From: a virus
Lineage: Duplodnaviria; Heunggongvirae; Uroviricota; Caudoviricetes
IMG/VR virus record: IMGVR_UViG_2778261668_000001
Reading direction: 5' to 3' (one strand)
DNA length: 33,994 bases
This document shows, piece after piece, positions 1,302 through 33,994 of this stretch (the first letter of the stretch is position 1; the number at the start of each line of letters is the position of its first letter). The translations under genes were made by a program, and so were the position numbers. Below the pieces are notes generated by a model. That model worked only from the letters and a program-made list of their open reading frames with translations. It was not told the origin of the DNA and searched no databases.

Positions 1302-1877
1302 CTACGGCAGTGCTGGCCATTCAATATCCTGTGCAGTTGACGTATCAACACGGTTCAGCAATACCCGATACTTTTTCCATGCTTCCAGCAACGAGATTTC
1401 TTCCTCCGTTGCAATTTCCAGATCTGCAGCATCCTGAAGTGGCGCAATATGCTCACTGGCTACCCGCATGAGGCTATTTTTTGTTTCTTCCGCTTCCCGT
1501 ATCCGAAACAGTTTTTCTGCTTCCGCATCCTTCACCCAGGTTGTGCCGTTCCACTTCTGATATTCCCCATCCGGCGACAACCAGGTGACATTTTCTGGTA
1601 ACGGGCCGAGTTCAGAAATAAATAACGCGTCCCCTGATGCCACGTCATAGACCGTTTTTCCCCTGTGGTCTTCAACGAGATGCCATGATGTATCCTCATT
1701 GTTAAAAACAGCCACGAAGCCAGCCGGAATATCTGGCGGTGCAATATCGGTACTGTTTGCAGGCAGACCTGTATGGGGTGGAATATATGCATCACCTTCA
1801 CCAATAAATTCGCCGGTTCCGGCCAGCAGATTATAAATTTTTATGGTCTGTGGATGTTCACTCATTATGAATGCCAT
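1302..1877 (-). CDS. tfa: Tail fiber assembly protein (Tfa)
   Basis: Conserved Tfa N-terminus ([44 protein letters not shown]); start overlaps the stf stop (TAATG). Confidence 0.85.
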
Positions 1878-17577: not shown

Positions 17578-17848
17578 GATGTTACCGTAATATGTGAGTA
17601 TCCATCGACTAGACACTAAGCAAAAAAGCTCCCGAAGGAGCCTTCATTTTCACTTTCTTAAATCTAACGACAGACGGCTAACATTTAAGTATTGTGAAAT
17701 ATTATCAAATGTAATCATCATTGATTTACAAAAGATACATTTTGCCCCGAAAGGATTCCTGTCAGAAACATCAAAAGATGATGTTCTATACTGAGAACCA
17801 TGGCAACACGGGCATCTAAAGTGAATATGGTTTGTAATATTTTCTACC

Positions 17849-18061
17849 TCAAAGTGCCACTACATGAACAGCCGCGGGGCCTTTAGGTCCGTTCTCAATA
17901 CCAAATTCGACTTGCTGATTCTCAGTTAACGTTTTGAAATCGTTGCTCTGAATAGCTGAGAAATGGACAAACACATCTTTGCTACCATCTTTCGGCGTGA
18001 TGAAACCAAAACCTTTTTCAGGGTTAAACCATTTCACTAAACCAGTCATTTTGTTAGACAT
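17849..18061 (-). CDS. cspI: Cold-shock protein, CspA family (CspI-like)
   Basis: [38 protein letters not shown] with RNP1/RNP2 motifs; long AT-rich leader at 18062-18424, typical of csp genes. Confidence 0.9.
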
Positions 18062-18424
18062 TATTATTACCTTTTGAAGAAGTTAGCCCTTGGGCAGAAT
18101 GGTCCGAAAAAAAATATCAGAGAGAAAAACCAACAAGGAAATCTCAAGAGGTACAAATAATAAAATTATAACAATGACTGCTTCAGATAATTTTGTAACA
18201 AACCAGAACACCATTAACGCATGATTAACCAACCATAGCAAGGATTACTTTTGTAAAGAAAAACACACGAATGAAACAATAGCTTTATTTATTAATAAAA
18301 CGTGTCATTCTGTCTAATGACCTTTTATCTTACCCTTAAGATTTCAAGGATTTTGACTCATGGAAGAGTCCTTTTTATTTAAATTTCACATTCAGCGCTA
18401 AAAATAATCCGATTTAATATTAAT

Positions 18425-21016: not shown

Positions 21017-21297
21017 AATATTGTGGTACTTTTTGTGGGAGTCATCCACTTACGCACTTTGTTTTGCTATGCCAGCAGTTAGCTTCTGCTGTAAAACTAT
21101 TCATGCAGCAAACCTGCACTTCACCACAATGGTTAGCATACTTTTCCTGATTAAGTTATTGCCAAATATGCTGGCCATTGTTTCATGTATTGGACCTCCT
21201 TACTATTTATTAAAGAGATCCAATATTCACCACTCTGTCTGTATCTCCACTCAGGCATCAGCCTTCTTCGTTATCGTATACAGACAAACTATGAATT

Positions 21298-21513
21298 TTA
21301 ATCAGTAATTATGACATTTGCTGCTGCAGGACCTTTAGCACCACTCTCTACAGAGAAGGTAACCTTTTGACCTTCAAATAAGGTTCGAAAATTATCATTC
21401 TGAATCGCAGAAAAATGCACAAACACATCTTTACTACCATCAACAGGAGAAATAAAGCCGAAACCTTTATCAGCGTTAAACCATTTTACTAAACCAGTCA
21501 TTTTATTTGACAT
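21298..21513 (-). CDS. cspB: Cold-shock protein CspB-like
   Basis: [71 protein letters not shown]. Confidence 0.9.
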
Positions 21514-21813
21514 TCTACATTCCTTAACTTGAGCCTTTCGGCATAAATGGCTTGTATAACAGAAACGACTTCGTACTTAATTGGAGAGACTCAAAGAAGG
21601 AATAAGTGAATAACACCTGAAATGAGAACTGCTTTAGTAAACTACTTCGTATATCGTCTGTTCTTCAAACCGACGCAATCATTAACGCATAGTTGAACAT
21701 ATGAAGCAATGTTTATTTTAGACATCCAGCCATCTTCAACCCCATCAAAAAACTATAGCTTTCTTCAGGAACGTGTGTATAGTGCGCCCAGTTATCAGTA
21801 TTAAGGAATTTTT

Positions 21814-26555: not shown

Positions 26556-27493
26556 CCCCTGAATCCTGCCGGGATCTGGCTGTAGTCCACGTTGTCGTAA
26601 CTGGATTTGAAGTACGGGTCTTCGCGTTTTTCGGTGTACGTGCTTACGGACGGCGATAAGCGCAGGGAAAGCTCATCCCATTTTTCCCGCAGCTTCGACG
26701 GGCTGAGCACGTTACGGCACCAGAACGGATCGCGGCTGACGCGGCTGTACATCTCGCAGATTTGTTTGTGAGTACGACCATCCTGCACACACATCAGGCG
26801 AATTTCGTTTGCCCAGGCTGTCCAGTTCGGTTCTTTGGGACGAACCACCTCGCCGTCACATTCGGCAGCCTGCTCGTACAGGGCAATGATTTTTTTCCAG
26901 AGCCACTGTGCACAGGTCAAATCATCCTGCGTTCCCCACTGGCGCTTTTTAGGGCTGAATACAACCGCATCAGGATGGCGAGTTAAAAAATCCTGTTCAG
27001 CCGTCTGCGTGTCCGGTTGCGAAGCGTCCGGACGAGAAGGTTTTTTATCTGACGGATCATGTTTTGATTTTACTGACGGATCCCCGCCAGATTCTGACGG
27101 GTGAAAACCCGCTTTTTTGCCAGATTTCGACGCATCAAATTTTGACGGGTCAGATTTTGATGCGTCAGATTTTGACGGGTCAGAATCTGACAGTTGAGAA
27201 AATGCCGCTGCCTGAAGCTTCGCAACGTTAAGCTGATAAACATTCGACGCATTGCGGTTACCCTGGCGACGCGCCTTACGCGTTAACCAGCCTTCTGCTT
27301 CCAGCCGTGCGATAGCCGTTCTGACGGTACTCATCCCCGCGCCAATCTGACGGGCAATGGTTTCAATTGATGGCCAGCACACACCTTCGTCATTACTGAA
27401 ATCAGCCAGGCGGGCCATAATTGCCACGCTGGATAACTTCATGCCTGATGCAGCGCAACCATCCCATACATAGCCGGTTAATTTAGTGCTCAT
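26552..27493 (-). CDS. Replication initiator (lambda O-like) with internal origin iterons
   Basis: N-terminal winged-HTH-like domain, central repeat linker (DPSKSDASKSDPSKFDASKS) encoded by iteron DNA, C-terminal domain; SD GAGG upstream. Confidence 0.75.
   Translation of the reverse strand: MSTKLTGYVWDGCAASGMKLSSVAIMARLADFSNDEGVCWPSIETIARQIGAGMSTVRTAIARLEAEGWLTRKARRQGNRNASNVYQLNVAKLQAAAFSQLSDSDPSKSDASKSDPSKFDASKSGKKAGFHPSESGGDPSVKSKHDPSDKKPSRPDASQPDTQTAEQDFLTRHPDAVVFSPKKRQWGTQDDLTCAQWLWKKIIALYEQAAECDGEVVRPKEPNWTAWANEIRLMCVQDGRTHKQICEMYSRVSRDPFWCRNVLSPSKLREKWDELSLRLSPSVSTYTEKREDPYFKSSYDNVDYSQIPAGFRG
27066..27195. repeat. Iteron array (candidate ori) inside the initiator gene
   Basis: About 7 direct repeats, core (A)TTTTGAC(G)GGTCAG; three consecutive exact 15-bp-period copies at 27139, 27154, 27169; weakly AT-rich flank. 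Confidence 0.6.
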
Positions 27494-27841: not shown

Positions 27842-28389
27842 GCGTTAGTTTCTCCACAGTCACGACACGCCACGGCGCCCGGAGCTGCACACTCGCGGGC
27901 GTCACTACTTTCTGAAACGCAAAAGATTTTGTAGACCAGTGCTGCATGCTCCTGCAGCTTCGAAATTGAGAGGTACAGCTCATCGTTAATTGCTGTCTTC
28001 TCATGCGGTTCCACTACACCATCTTCAATTGCTGAACGAATCTGTTTTGAATAACTGCCGATCTGTTCAATGACCTCCAGCAGGCGTTGGTTGATATCGG
28101 CGTTGTCCACATCCTCGATGTCAGGAAGAGACACAAAGACGCCATTTGCAGACTGCGCCACAGCGTCAGCAATGAAGTGAGTTCCACCAGCACGTTGCAA
28201 AATCATTGCCCATCCCAGCGGGAAAATCTGATCGCCATCGGCACGAAGGCGGTTAAATAATGCGTTCTCTGTTACATCCAGCCAGTCAGCAGCTTCAGCG
28301 TACCCCCCCGGCAACGCTGCGATAGTTTTTCTGACAGCTTTCACGTACCACTCAGGCTGTTTTTCTACTTTCCAGTGATGCTTACCCAC
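27838..28389 (-). CDS. Early regulatory protein in the cII/YdaT position (183 aa)
   Basis: Directly downstream of cro with overlapping stop/start; C-terminal Cys cluster ([17 protein letters not shown]). Family guess only. Confidence 0.45.
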
Positions 28390-28642: not shown

Positions 28643-28739
28643 ACGCCCTCCAAATATTGCGCGTTATGCATGTTATTTCACGCAATTATTTTGCGCAAGT
28701 TGATTTGCTTATCACGCAATAAAGAAATGTAATAAACGC
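28643..28739. promoter_or_regulatory. OR-like operator/promoter region between cro and cI
   Basis: Repeated half-sites TTGCG / CGCAA (e.g. TTGCTTATCACGCAA at 28705-28719), consistent with TTGC-N7-GCAA operators. Confidence 0.6.
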
Positions 28740-29450: not shown

Positions 29451-29476
29451 CGGCCACCGAAAGGTGGCTTTTTATT
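29451..29476 (+). terminator. Intrinsic terminator after cI
   Basis: GCCACC-gaaa-GGTGGC (GNRA loop) followed by TTTTTATT. Confidence 0.7.
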
Positions 29477-29486
29477 ACCTATAAAT

Positions 29487-29537
29487 TTGCATATCTCGCA
29501 AATATCACTTGCATATCTCGCAATTTAATTTTATCTT
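29487..29537 (+). promoter_or_regulatory. OL-like tandem operators overlapping a candidate pL promoter
   Basis: Two copies of TTGCATATCTCGCAA (29487-29501, 29509-29523), 22 bp apart; -35 TTGCAT (29509-29514) and -10 TATCTT (29532-29537) with 17-nt spacer. Confidence 0.55.
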
Positions 29538-29771
29538 TTGTTCCAGACCAACTACAGGATTACAACAAAATCTAGTTGCAACACGGTGCATGTGTCGTAA
29601 GCAGTCAGTAAATGTCAAAAACGAACAGGCAGGACGCCCACGAAGTAGCCGCCTGGGGCATATGAAGTCCAGGATGATTCGTTAGCAACAAAAAAGCGCC
29701 CTACAGGACGCTTAGCTCTTTAACAATCTGGTCCCCATCAACAAGTAACTGATAACTTGAGGAGGTGTGAA

Positions 29772-29978
29772 ATGCACAAAACAGAACCAAAAATCGTCGC
29801 GCCCGGATACACAAATGAGGAAATTTACGAGTGGATGGCAAAGAAGCTGGCAGCTATAAACCAGCTTCGTGAAGTGCTGTCTTATCGACAGGAAACAATA
29901 GACTCCTTAAAAAAACTGGATCAGGAAATCACGGTTTTATCACAGGATGCTACTTTAGATATTGTGCAGACAAATTAG
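29772..29978 (+). CDS. Hypothetical 68-aa protein, first gene of the putative pL transcript
   Basis: Strong SD GAGGAGGT 4 nt before ATG at 29772; 3' end overlaps the convergent 144-aa gene. Not Arg-rich, so not N-like. Confidence 0.5.
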   Translation: MHKTEPKIVAPGYTNEEIYEWMAKKLAAINQLREVLSYRQETIDSLKKLDQEITVLSQDATLDIVQTN

Positions 29979-30384
29979 GATCCCATTCATTTTCGTCAAA
30001 ATCATCAAAGTGATGAATTTGTGATCTCCAGTCACGATAATCTAAAAATTTCTGGGCGGTTACGCTTATTTTATCAAGTGTGAGTTCATCCTGAATTGAA
30101 AGAAGAAGTTCATCAAATTTCATCTCATTAATCTGTTTTGGCATCCAGTGATGCTTCATCAGAATAAGGTGAACCAGAGCCTTTTTCCCATTCAACTGAT
30201 TATAGGGAGTGCCGAATTTCTTCCGGTGCTCATGTAAGACAAGGTCCAGAAGAGTAAGTAATGTTGCTCTTGATTCAACTTTGCTTATTTCGACTGATGA
30301 CACTACCCCACTGATTTCAATGCCCCGATACTTTCCAACATTTTCACAGTGGGATTTGTACAGCGTATAGATATTACCGGACAT
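29950..30384 (-). CDS. Hypothetical 144-aa protein, convergent to the pL gene
   Basis: ORF starting MSGNIYTLYKSH with SD AAGGA; no recognised motif; occupies the cI-adjacent position where exclusion genes are often found. Confidence 0.55.
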   Translation of the reverse strand: MSGNIYTLYKSHCENVGKYRGIEISGVVSSVEISKVESRATLLTLLDLVLHEHRKKFGTPYNQLNGKKALVHLILMKHHWMPKQINEMKFDELLLSIQDELTLDKISVTAQKFLDYRDWRSQIHHFDDFDENEWDPNLSAQYLK

Positions 30385-30479
30385 TTCTTTTCCTTTTGCG
30401 TTGTTGGGGATAACCAGATTAACCGAATCCTTGTTGTTGGGGAATAACCAGGTCCACCTCGCCTGATGTGGCTAAAAGC

Positions 30480-30900
30480 AGGCACATAACAGCTAAGTAT
30501 TTTTAACCAGAGAGAATCCTTAGCGTTGTGGTGAATGCGGCTCAGCGCACGCGGGTTAAGGTTGAGGCTGACAGTCGACCTTCTGTGGATACCCACCCGT
30601 CTGGTGTGCAACCTTCGCCAGGCACCGGGAGGCACCCGGCACCACAACTTTATGCTGTGTGTAGTCCTGGAGGTACCAGTTTGTACCCTTGCTTCCGGCT
30701 GGTACCGTCCTTTTTACAAAACAGAGAAGAGCATCACCGGACGACGGGCTCATAACCCAATCCATCCGGGCGGCTGCCACCGCAGGTGTTCTTCTCTGTT
30801 TTGTGGAGAAACTAACCGCCCCTACGGGGGCATTTATGGAAATGTAATTAACTCAATAATCGCCGGACGGTGAGGGCTTCCTTTTACCCGAATTCAGCGC
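30480..30900 (+). ncRNA. Candidate structured RNA or leader (uncharacterised), GC-rich and non-coding
   Basis: No protein-like frame. Nested helices: 9-bp long-range pairing 30525-30533/30640-30648; 8-bp stems at 30558-30565/30575-30582 and 30672-30679/30699-30706; about 25-bp helix 30711-30735/30785-30809 with G.U pairs valid only on the plus strand. Confidence 0.3.
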
Positions 30901-30928
30901 GGTGCAGCGCATATACGTGGAGAACAAA

Positions 30929-31465
30929 ATGTCATTTATTAAAACTTTTTCCGGGAAGCATTTTTATTATGACAGGATAAATAAAGACGACATCGTTATT
31001 AACGATATCGCGGTTTCCCTTTCAAATATCTGTCGCTTTGCAGGACATCTTTCACACTTCTACAGTGTCGCCCAACATGCGGTGCTTTGCAGCCAGCTGG
31101 TGCCGCAGGAATTTGCTTTTGAAGCTTTAATGCATGATGCAACAGAAGCATATTGCCAGGACATCCCCGCACCACTGAAACAACTTCTTCCTGACTATAA
31201 ACGGATGGAAGAAAAAATAGACGCCGTAATCCGTGAGAAATACGGGTTACCTCCTGTTATGAGCACGCCAGTGAAATATGCCGATCTCATTATGCTGGCA
31301 ACCGAACGCCGCGATCTCGGGCTTGATGATGGCTCTTTCTGGCCTGTACTGGAAGGTATCCCGGCAACAGAGATGTTCAAAGTTATTCCACTGGCTCCGA
31401 GCCATGCCTACGGGATGTTTATGGAGCGCTTTAACGAGTTATCGGAGTTACGCACATGTGCATGA
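30929..31465 (+). CDS. HD-domain phosphohydrolase (YfdR-like)
   Basis: HD motifs (H..H ... HD ... D: HFYSVAQHAVL, MHDATEAY, D); SD GGAGAA before ATG at 30929 (ORF-track start at 30902 is GTG). Confidence 0.8.
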   Translation: MSFIKTFSGKHFYYDRINKDDIVINDIAVSLSNICRFAGHLSHFYSVAQHAVLCSQLVPQEFAFEALMHDATEAYCQDIPAPLKQLLPDYKRMEEKIDAVIREKYGLPPVMSTPVKYADLIMLATERRDLGLDDGSFWPVLEGIPATEMFKVIPLAPSHAYGMFMERFNELSELRTCA

Positions 31466-31499: not shown

Positions 31500-31694
31500 A
31501 TGAACAACTTAATGACAACAAAACAAGTCGCCGAATTCTGTGGCGTTTCAATATCGACGGTGCTTCGCTGGAACAGCGTAAACAGGAGGACTGGCCAGAA
31601 ATACAGACCAGATTTTCCAGATCCTGATATTAAATCCTGCCCAAATAAATGGGCATCACGCAAGATATATAGGTTTGCTGGAGTAATAGAGTAA
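31500..31694 (+). CDS. Small HTH DNA-binding protein, AlpA/Xis-like (candidate excisionase)
   Basis: MNNLMTTKQVAEFCGVSISTVLRWN... HTH typical of AlpA/excisionase; SD GGAGG; about 1 kb from the integrase. Confidence 0.6.
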   Translation: MNNLMTTKQVAEFCGVSISTVLRWNSVNRRTGQKYRPDFPDPDIKSCPNKWASRKIYRFAGVIE

Positions 31695-32770: not shown

Positions 32771-33994
32771 TCAGTTGCTGTCTGAACCAGTACAAGTAAC
32801 GATCGATTCAACTCTCTCCCACCATGCCTGGTAAGCTTTACGCTGTTCTTCTAAATAATCGCTCTTGTCATAAACCTGCCATACCCCTGGCAGTTTATGA
32901 CCGAGCATTATTTCTGCAATATGAGGCGCAGTAAGATCAGAAAAGTTTGTTCGTGCTGTTCGTCTCAAATCATGAAGAGACCAATGGGGGAATTGATACC
33001 CTAAACGCCGCCATGCGTACTGCATTAAATTGTAAGGCAGCGACTGCAATGATGTCCGACCAACGGGTTCCCTACATCCTTCCTTAGTAAAAAGCATATC
33101 GGAACCATTGTTCATAGAGATAACGTACTTTATAAGCTCTTCAACCGGTTCAATAATGGGACGCTTTAGCGGTTCACCTGTTATATCCCCTGTCTTATGT
33201 CGTTCTGGCGGTACAGTCCATACCTTATTAATGAAATCAAAATCATCCACCCTAGCGGTAATTAGCTCTGAACTACGGCAGCCAAAATGCAGCAATAGTT
33301 TAATGAAGGCCCGGTATTTAGGAACCATTCGAGAACCATCGATCGCAGCATAAAGGATTTTAATTTCATCATGTGTCAGAAACCGTTTCTTCTGACCTTT
33401 ACGGATATCCATATCTTTACCCGTGATATCCGACAGCGGGCGAGTTTCAATAAGCTTTCTCTTATACGCCCAGACGTGGGCCTGCTTTGCGTTAATTAGC
33501 AATCGGTCTGCTATTGCAGGAGTCTTAGTGCTAAGAGGCTCCAGGACTTCTAACCAATCATGCAATGTAGCTGCATCGTGAGGGATATTCCCGATTTTAG
33601 AGAACAGGTGCAGCTCAAACGAGCGGAGTATCTGTTCAGAACCTTTTTTATTTTTTACACAATATGCTTCATACCAAGCACGGATCACAGACTCTACCGT
33701 CATGGCTTCAGTAGCTTTTCGTTTTTCAGCCTGCTTGACCAATCGTGGATTGCGGTTTGACTCGAGTTCACCACGAAGACGGATAACTTCTTCTCTGGCC
33801 TCTTTTAGTCCAGTTGCCGGGTAAGTTCCGATATCAAGACGCTCACCTTTCCCCGCCCACTGATAACGATATTGGAACACTACGCGACCTTTCGGTGATA
33901 CTCTAACAGACAGACCATCACGATCGGATTTAACCAAAACCTTATCACGTTCCTTTCCAACGACTGAACGCAACCACGCATCAGACAGCGCCAT
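32771..33994 (-). CDS. int: Tyrosine integrase (P4-like, N-terminal arm-binding domain); start codon is the last base of the window
   Basis: 407 aa; N-terminal DUF4102-like domain (MALSDAWLRSV...GLSVRVSPKGRVVFQYRYQWAGKGERLDIGTYP); C-terminal catalytic residues (R...HDLRRT...Y). Confidence 0.9.
   Translation of the reverse strand: MALSDAWLRSVVGKERDKVLVKSDRDGLSVRVSPKGRVVFQYRYQWAGKGERLDIGTYPATGLKEAREEVIRLRGELESNRNPRLVKQAEKRKATEAMTVESVIRAWYEAYCVKNKKGSEQILRSFELHLFSKIGNIPHDAATLHDWLEVLEPLSTKTPAIADRLLINAKQAHVWAYKRKLIETRPLSDITGKDMDIRKGQKKRFLTHDEIKILYAAIDGSRMVPKYRAFIKLLLHFGCRSSELITARVDDFDFINKVWTVPPERHKTGDITGEPLKRPIIEPVEELIKYVISMNNGSDMLFTKEGCREPVGRTSLQSLPYNLMQYAWRRLGYQFPHWSLHDLRRTARTNFSDLTAPHIAEIMLGHKLPGVWQVYDKSDYLEEQRKAYQAWWERVESIVTCTGSDSN

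Follow-up and report, generated by a model that had tools for sequence, protein, structure and literature searches.

What kind of element occupies positions 30385-30900 of the 33,994-nucleotide (nt) Caudoviricetes sequence IMGVR_UViG_2778261668_000001 (hereafter the window, meaning the whole stretch), which are flanked on the left by an ECs1072-family gene on the minus strand (29950-30384) and on the right by a gene on the plus strand for an HD 5'-deoxynucleotidase of the yfdR type (30929-31465)? The original prediction, made from the letters alone, described a densely base-paired non-coding element acting as RNA on the plus strand, possibly as a leader of the HD gene, and assigned it to no known RNA family. 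Here, we show that the element is a real, strand-specific plus-strand RNA structure of approximately 0.45 kb, kept in homologues through compensatory changes and through G.U pairs that can form on the plus strand only. The region is probably a dicF-type small-RNA locus, a modular prophage element present here as its early-left (pL) operon copy, and its most likely function is that of a terminator insulating the early-left genes and yielding processed small RNAs (sRNAs) of the Hfq type, approximately 190 and 63 nt long. The kind of locus is known; its combination of an STnc100-like body with an RprA-type seed is new.

Folding of 30385-30920 gives z = -4.2 on the plus strand, a value equalled by 0 of 100 shuffles, and z = -2.1 on the minus strand; 30460-30830 reaches z = -4.9. 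All four helices that had been proposed were recovered in folds or in an inverted-repeat search. They do not nest into one structure, as had been assumed, and belong to several separate modules with an intrinsic terminator in the middle. Covariation was assessed for the long hairpin at 30716-30804 (+), whose imperfect stem of 20-25 bp leads into a three-way junction with CCGG(A)/(U)CCGG, a sub-hairpin GGGCUCAUAACCC and a variable third arm. Its 25-nt arms (30716-30740 and 30780-30804) are 84% complementary, and it folds as 25 nested pairs from 30711. Across 26 distinct homologue sequences 94.4% of the cells pair, and nine pairs (36 cells) have changed on both sides, a result that none of 500 shuffles reaches; sliding the 3' partners as a control leaves only 38-54% pairing. 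The predicted strand-specific wobble pairs are also present: alignment pair 22-100 is U.G in 21 of the 26 sequences and pair 19-103 is G.U in five of them, the window included. The kept U.G pair fits an RNA on the plus strand only.

Read from 5' to 3' on the plus strand, the element begins with a leader hairpin motif, GUUGUUGGGGA(A)UAACCAG, which is present as a direct repeat (30400-30417 and 30433-30451, together 30400-30451); hairpins with a similar G-rich loop (UGUGGGA, UGUAGGGG, UGUGAGA, CUGUUGGGGAAU) are found in phiES15, Kp4866-6, locus L074 and HK639. A small hairpin, CCAC...GUGG (30454-30471), followed by UAAAAGCAGGCAC, forms a lead-in (30454-30485) that is kept in phiES15, Kp4866-6 and the e14 prophage of Escherichia coli K-12. 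Next comes the upstream hairpin (30483-30533), in which CACAUAAC-AGCUAAG pairs with CUUAGC-GUUGUGGUG in precursor folds. It competes for the same GUUGUGG with P1, a 9-bp helix of GUUGUGGUG (30525-30533) with CACCACAAC (30640-30648) that closes a five-hairpin domain in the fold of 30524-30717; the 8-bp stem 30558-30565/30575-30582 is present in this same fold. Folding the processed form closes P1 and leaves the seed unpaired; the precursor fold instead ties up GUUGUGG in the upstream hairpin. The P1-closed domain (30525-30648), supported by the fold and by the STnc100 match described below, is the 5' body of the predicted ~190-nt RNA. P1 carries a compensatory change in phiES15 (G-C to A-U), and the last hairpin of the domain, CCGGG-AGGCA-CCCGG, reads GGUGG-AGGCA-CCACC in Klebsiella types, the stem covarying around an unchanged AGGCA loop. 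A linker that is unpaired in the fold (30649-30668) then carries the seed UGCUGUGUGUAGUC (30653-30666), at the position of the 5' seed of DicF. It leads into T1 (30669-30715), an intrinsic terminator of -17.3 kcal/mol with a 13-bp stem, GGAGGUACCAGUU/GGCUGGUACC(G)UCC, followed by UUUUU, at which the predicted sRNAs would end; the stem 30672-30679/30699-30706 is the core of this 13-bp hairpin (30669-30710). Homologues carry at least eight unrelated stem sequences in place of T1, all followed by U5-7. The long hairpin follows, and leader homology stops at GGAGAAACUAAC (30805-30817), a recurrent boundary motif resembling a ribosome-binding site.

Homologues were gathered in two scans. The first searched viral contigs for CACAAC..TGCTGTGTGNAG, so that its loci were picked by the seed pattern, and gave at least 120 loci, with approximately 33 distinct true variants among the matches listed; the second was anchored on the long hairpin and gave a sample of 120 loci. 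The first-scan variants share one order of parts: an upstream long hairpin with a 3' arm ending in GUUGUGG, which in some encloses T-loop hairpins or a tRNA-like element; P1, GUUGUGG(UG) with (CA)CCACAAC, around a domain of 40-130 nt; single-stranded AUUGCUGUGUGUAGUCUU; a hairpin with U5-7; the long hairpin, ACACAACAG...CUGUUGUGU, opening into a three-way junction; and GGAGAAAC with a small hairpin, after which the first gene begins. The domain within P1 exists in several unrelated types among phages, its interior swapped and of varying length, and RNAalifold across all domain types, the interiors being unalignable, recovered only P1 and the hairpins near both ends. Some members have additional parts. 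T-loop hairpins of the GGUUCGAUUCC type lie inside the upstream long hairpin in the leaders of L004 (Kp4866-6), L006 (phiNP) and L007, and the terminator loops of L002 (ST64B), L004, L074 and L078 have an extra inner arm and a loop with AGGAGG followed by GAAGAUAAUGUUCU.

The same architecture was found when the Qin locus of K-12 was read: the window element, like dicF, stands in an early-left position and has an upstream hairpin of the ribonuclease (RNase) III type, a structured domain and a 3' end at an intrinsic terminator. Over its full length, that of the ~190-nt long DicF, the K-12 sequence running from GGUUGUGGC to the end of DicF can be aligned with loci L022, L035 and L078, which have the same 5' domain and differ mainly in the seed (UUUCUGGUGACGUU in DicF versus UUGCUGUGUGUAGU). 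DicF is a proven trans-acting, Hfq-dependent sRNA. It exists as a 190-nt species with a 5' end made by RNase III and a 53-nt species with a 5' end made by RNase E, both ending at the terminator, in agreement with a 1990 study cited in the same paper, and longer read-through transcripts were not detected. A distance of 190 nt from the DicF 3' end leads back to the junction between the 3' arm of the upstream hairpin and GGUUGUGG; in K-12 the equivalent helix is ~20 bp long and the 190-nt 5' end falls at its 3' arm. By analogy, the upstream hairpin of the window (30483-30533) may be the equivalent RNase III site. With the DicF model (RF00039, gathering score 48 bits), K-12 DicF itself scores 76.7 bits and the counterpart of T1 in L060 (seed plus terminator) 29.1 bits (E 3.5e-4), which is sub-threshold. 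DicF uses its 5' end as the seed for xylR and its 3' part for ftsZ; the 5' seed of the window differs, being UGCUGUGUGUAGUC instead of UUUCUGGUGACGUU.

The body of the element has a second relative. The window element matches no Rfam family at the gathering thresholds, but a permissive search aligned 30495-30717 with the full length of STnc100 (RF02076, model positions 1-206) at 38.4 bits and E 1.7e-6, against a gathering score of 47. Relatives score 35-41 bits, and the K-12 dicF-dicB spacer, which holds the window's own domain type, 34.4 bits. STnc100, EcOnc27 and PasD are prophage sRNAs that bind Hfq in enterohaemorrhagic E. coli (EHEC) and usually lie downstream of Q or stx2B. The window element shares their structure, a closing helix with the CCGGG-AGGCA-CCCGG hairpin beside its 3' strand and then a terminator, and does not share their late-region location, as it lies in the early-left operon downstream of cI. 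The original view that the element belongs to no known RNA family thus gives way to a sub-threshold STnc100 match, a dicF architecture and an RprA seed. An identity with PasB was rejected, as PasB lies within an operon of structural genes, and so was a tRNA identity, ARAGORN being negative in the window and in seven loci. Two tRNA-like features were seen in relatives. Immediately 5' of its structured domain, locus L060 has an Rfam tRNA match at 1800-1925 (+; 40 bits, gathering 29) that contains an insert of 68 nt, and the acceptor stem of this match, UGUGGUG/CACCACA, has the same sequence as P1, although ARAGORN calls no tRNA in related loci; in HK639 (L132, 33850-33700, minus strand) a tRNA-like 3' half ending in ACCA lies downstream of the annotated putL-like RNA.

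The seed connects the element to RprA, a core Hfq-dependent sRNA of the host that regulates stress responses. The 14 nt of UGCUGUGUGUAGUC are identical to the conserved 3' part of RprA, upstream of its terminator, a link that arose from a literature search with the seed string, which returned the RprA sequence. In L019, L022 and L027, 94% of the aligned positions match RprA nt 51-105, through the terminator stem in L019 and L027, and the Rfam RprA model (RF00034) scores a sub-threshold 47 bits in L027 (gathering 70). RprA is itself shortened to a 3' form by RNase E. The window element has no similarity to the stem-loops of the RprA 5' half. At the rpoS leader, GCUGUGUGU of the window can pair with ACACGC..GC, and the AACGAAUU and CCCCU segments are absent.

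Expression evidence comes from the e14 copy in K-12, to which we were led by a BLAST match annotated as ymfH. Its alignment with the window starts at the small hairpin (30454) and extends to GGAGAAACUAAC, with 85% identity over the whole 546-base region and near identity through the sRNA modules. Published Term-seq data for MG1655 (PMC7815308, supplementary files 1 and 3) place three minus-strand 3' ends in it: 1201195 is the last U of the homologous T1 (window 30715), 1201257 is the A just before UGCUGUGUG at the 5' edge of the seed (window 30652), and 1201423 lies in the 5' arm of the upstream hairpin (window C30485). These ends agree with termination at T1, with a cut by which a 62-nt RNA would be set free and with cleavage of the upstream hairpin. 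In the window, an RNase E-type cut is predicted between A30652 and U30653. Together with position and covariation, the same-strand ends in this near-identical copy bear out a plus-strand RNA in the early-left region between cI and int, which the original prediction had placed there.

We propose the following mechanism. Plus-strand transcription would enter from the left, from pL plus any read-through, and the first structure to form would be the hairpin 30483-30533, with GUUGUGG paired to the upstream CACAUAAC. The tRNA-like, STnc100-like multi-hairpin domain, the single-stranded seed and T1 would follow. The majority of transcripts would end at T1, so that T1 would insulate or attenuate the downstream early-left genes and also give the sRNA its 3' end. 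RNase III cleavage of the upstream hairpin, by analogy with DicF, would generate the ~190-nt form and free GUUGUGG to close P1, and an RNase E-type cut just 5' of UGCUGUGUG would generate the ~63-nt form (30653-30715). In the latter, a U-rich stretch would come after the seed and lead into the terminator hairpin and U tail, the usual layout for Hfq binding, and this RNA is predicted to act in trans by base pairing. As its seed is the conserved seed region of RprA, the short RNA may reach some of the targets in the RprA regulon or act as a competitor of RprA. Read-through RNA would carry the long hairpin 30716-30804 at the 5' end of the downstream mRNA, where it may serve as an RNase III-type processing or a stabilising element between the sRNA and that mRNA. 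The nucleases, the Hfq dependence, the trans activity and the targets of the element RNA are what we infer in this scheme.

Several observations weigh against it. The window has no RprA or DicF model match at E up to 10, and hence none at the DicF gathering score of 48, and its STnc100 match stays below gathering. The processed form (30524-30717) by itself folds only modestly better than shuffles (z = -1.4), and the long hairpin retains conserved internal mismatches, which bears on the presumed RNase III cleavage of either hairpin. The expression evidence belongs to the e14 copy and not to the window itself. In a duplex test with the rpoS leader the RprA control reached z = -2.5 and the window z = -0.2, no better than shuffles; with the ftsZ initiation region the window gave z = +0.5 and DicF itself z = -0.5, so the latter test has little power, as DicF itself goes unflagged. 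Seed conservation in the first scan is circular, because the loci were selected by the seed pattern. The second scan, which was anchored elsewhere, found the RprA type in approximately 48 of 120 loci, a AGCCACUGCU type in approximately 43 and different seeds in the remainder. A seed that varies on a constant scaffold is exchangeable, which fits an sRNA family of differing specificities or a drifting terminator lead-in, and the segment could be drifting freely as such a lead-in. However, the identical 14-17-nt seed recurs with at least seven different terminator stems and at least five unrelated upstream domains, which argues that it is kept for its own sake and against drift. Other seed alleles on the same terminator scaffold (for example in L137, L138, L151 and L172) read AGCCACUGCUUUGGCGG, UUGCUGUCUUUGGCGG and AAAGCUGU(A/G)UGAAGUUUUGGCGG.

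The same evidence bears on the possibility that the region is purely a cis-acting insulator or attenuator whose released fragments do nothing in trans. In favour of this, selection is strongest on T1, where many unrelated stem sequences occur and a U tract always comes next; the seed differs among family members; neither ftsZ nor the rpoS leader gave a significant duplex; and in K-12 transcripts that read past the DicF terminator have not been detected. We nevertheless consider it unlikely, since the homologous K-12 module encodes a trans-acting Hfq-dependent sRNA, the seed outlasts exchanges of the terminator stem and of the upstream domain, it equals a functional region of RprA, and the e14 Term-seq data include a discrete end exactly at its 5' edge.

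The position of the element brings in a further alternative. The element lies on the same strand as cI and 3' of it, in the early-left operon between cI and int. An intrinsic terminator directly follows cI (29453-29478), and operator-like repeats, TTGCATATCTCGCAA or TTGC(A/T)TATC(T/A)CGCAA, occur once in the gap between cro and cI (28705-28719) and twice just after cI (29487-29501 and 29509-29523), as the right (OR) and left (OL) operators. From the repeats and the terminator behind cI it follows that pL fires rightward, on the plus strand, and the element lies approximately 900 nt into the operon, behind a small insertion. An exact rrn-type boxA, GCUCUUUAACAA / GCTCTTTAACAA, stands at 29715-29726 (+), approximately 170 nt downstream of the putative pL; it is the sole exact match in the window, is preceded by a hairpin, AGCGCCCUACAGGACGCU, and suggests Nus-factor-dependent modification of pL transcription. 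A boxA within the hairpin arms (GUGCUCUCUUCG) was rejected because it sits in the long helix and is unlikely to be free.

A cis-acting processive antiterminator RNA of the put or nut kind, letting pL transcription pass T1 and later terminators in a phage without N, would suit this place in the pL operon upstream of a conserved terminator, and SfIV indeed has no annotated N gene and an exact boxA lies upstream. It is nonetheless a highly improbable explanation. When the regions were read and compared, the element resembled neither HK022 putL/putR nor the annotated HK639 putL-like RNA in sequence or structure, and HK639, despite its own putL-like RNA, still has pieces related to the leader further downstream. 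What P1 encloses is exchanged between phages, with unrelated sequences of 40-130 nt taking the place of the domain. A second copy in the pR operon is missing, the only match being a 15-nt one like a ribosome-binding site (E ~0.04) in the window, with none in SfIV. Finally, transcripts with the homologous domain end at the DicF terminator in K-12 and at T1 in e14.

Very little is left in favour of a protein-coding region, whether a decayed gene or a small one, with a product like YmfH or YfdP or the 'hypothetical protein' annotated in many records. Open reading frames (ORFs) of 52-114 amino acids (aa) overlap the region, RefSeq annotates a frameshifted hypothetical protein at the element, ymfH (b1142) is annotated on the e14 copy (L213, 5070-5381, minus strand), and one 52-aa ORF matches phrog_33599, a family of unknown function. 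The original statement that there is no protein-like frame therefore fails for the mere presence of ORFs and holds for their content: the ORFs overlapping the element have no Pfam match and their frames are not conserved. In the long hairpin, the distance from the conserved 5' block to the conserved 3' block is 0, 1 or 2 modulo 3 depending on the member, and several members have stops in all three frames, which excludes a conserved ORF. Substitutions are compensatory for pairing, and the interior of the P1 domain is swapped at varying length. In near-identical DNA, the 112-aa ORF of the window aligns with YmfH over only 34 aa; the frame is not shared, and to judge from these sequences ymfH is probably not a real protein gene. 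The absence of a conserved reading frame argues for an RNA and not a decayed gene; homologues pointing to a decayed gene were what the original prediction had named as its own refutation. A DNA-level element (recombination joint, cruciform or protein-binding repeat) can be set aside as equally far-fetched, for while modules are shuffled between phages, GGAGAAACUAAC recurs at gene boundaries and direct repeats stand at 30400 and 30433, on the opposite strand the conserved G.U pairs would turn into C.A mismatches, the hairpin with its U tract reads as a terminator on one strand only, and K-12 has same-strand RNA 3' ends.

The order repressor gene, element, first early-left gene is the same in ST64B, mEp460, phiNP, sal3, phiES15, Kp4866-6, SfIV and K-12 e14, and the first gene varies among phages (sb37/yfdP, kil, a gene with an RdgC-like start). 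Window 30385-30821 is 99.3% identical to SfIV 27690-27254, after which window 30818-30930 matches SfIV 25953-25841 at 93.8%. From this alignment, yfdP and yfdQ are deleted in the window relative to SfIV, with the joint at approximately 30818-30821, and 30818-30928 (+), including a small hairpin at 30817-30832, is a yfdQ-yfdR intergenic remnant outside the conserved element. Through this deletion, the HD gene became a neighbour by accident. The first suggestion, a leader or riboregulator dedicated to that gene, is not supported, given that the same element precedes other first genes, such as sb37/yfdP or kil, in SfIV, ST64B, phiNP, mEp460 and phiES15.

Other features of the window and of related loci were noted in passing. 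An exact 15-mer of the boundary motif also lies at the 3' end of the cII-like (ymfL-like) gene (27844-27858, minus strand). More generally, TGTGGAGAAACTAAC or a close variant occurs at or just upstream of gene boundaries, in the window at 27844-27858 (minus strand) and 30802-30816 (plus strand) and in SfIV (L131) at three boundaries (30078, 32741 and 34565); it resembles a ribosome-binding site or boundary motif common to mosaic joints. Downstream of the HD gene are an excisionase-like gene (31500-31691, +) and, on the opposite strand, a DUF4102/P4-type integrase gene (32771-33994, minus strand) that reaches the end of the window; in SfIV and L001, unlike here, int is co-oriented with the early-left operon. 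Four direct repeats of the CAGATTTTGACGGGT type with 15-nt spacing (27121-27195), within an ORF of 313 aa resembling a replication protein, look like origin iterons. Above the Rfam gathering thresholds, the window further holds IS009 (1336-1534, minus strand, 205 bits) and two cspA thermoregulator leaders (17803-18208 and 21235-21674, both minus strand), which imply that the prophage carries two cold-shock-protein genes. Matches above gathering to C4 antisense RNA and isrK near antirepressor genes in L002 (409-597), L003 (323-511) and L007 (48-124), all on the minus strand (ST64B, mEp460 and sal3), point to RNA immunity modules of the P1/P7 type.

The long hairpin is present in 2,773 of 5,426 complete E. 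coli genomes and the sRNA body in 2,076 of them. Approximately half of these genomes thus carry parts of an element that is unannotated as RNA or called a hypothetical protein, such as YmfH in K-12. Its assignment to the dicF type disposes of a number of spurious ORFs, explains the e14 Term-seq 3' ends and joins the separately curated families STnc100, DicF and RprA in a single modular system. Should the RprA-type seed be active, a prophage RNA of wide occurrence would mimic a core regulator of stress and biofilm formation. A bolder idea, which we hold only tentatively, is that lambdoid prophages carry a seed-swapping sRNA cassette at a fixed early-left site, in which a constant scaffold (processing hairpin, tRNA-like body and UUUGGCGG terminator) would present an exchangeable seed of 12-16 nt. 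DicF would be one allele, and the commonest allele, that of the window and e14 ymfH, would be a mimic of processed RprA that enters or competes within the RprA regulon on induction or at low level in lysogens. The phage RNAs and the RprA 3' half would then have a common ancestor. If true, the cassette would touch the regulon of RprA, that is RpoS, csgD and biofilm formation, and the control of conjugation.

The element can be compared with its closest known systems. The put RNAs of HK022 and HK639 are also structured RNAs in the pL leader of lambdoid phages lacking N, upstream of terminators, but share no similarity with the window element in sequence or structure, and window-type transcripts end at T1 instead of being carried through it. 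The EHEC prophage anti-sRNAs AgvB and AsxR resemble the window family in their conserved 3' scaffold, variable 5' seed of 14-18 nt and fixed position in lambdoid prophages; they differ in lying downstream of pR', in their scaffold and in having no sequence similarity. A GcvB sponge, as might be read from the CACAAC motifs that recall AgvB, was set aside, as the motifs are paired in cis with GUUGUGG and AgvB gave no match. RprA shares the 14-nt seed region UGCUGUGUGUAGUC with the window and the terminator stem GCCCAUC/GAUGGGC with L019 and L027, and is cut by RNase E to a shorter 3' form, as is predicted for the short form of the window. In contrast to the window element, it occupies its own chromosomal locus and not a prophage, its 5' half is unmatched, its rpoS-leader pairing parts AACGAAUU and CCCCU are missing from the window, and the window terminator is of the DicF type. 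STnc100, PasD and EcOnc27 are likewise prophage-borne and agree with the window in the full-length model alignment, the closing helix GGUG...CACC, the invariant CCGGG-AGGCA-CCCGG hairpin and the terminator end, whereas canonical STnc100 copies lie in the late region downstream of Q or stx2B and have different linker and terminator sequences. The e14 ymfH region is the same element among like neighbours (repressor, small ORF, opposite-strand gene, element, xis and int), although it is annotated as a protein gene and differs in the terminator loop and in the third arm of the long hairpin. The dicF locus of Qin differs in its seed (UUUCUGGUGACGUU versus UGCUGUGUGUAGUC) and in the domain enclosed upstream of dicF, which is not STnc100-like, and the window in turn has a long three-way-junction hairpin after its terminator and shows ftsZ complementarity no better than shuffles. 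Both nevertheless stand in a lambdoid early-left operon 3' of the repressor gene, the window's domain type is found after dicF, and their parts follow in one order: RNase III-type hairpin, P1-closed domain, short single-stranded seed, UUUGGCGG...terminator hairpin and U tract.

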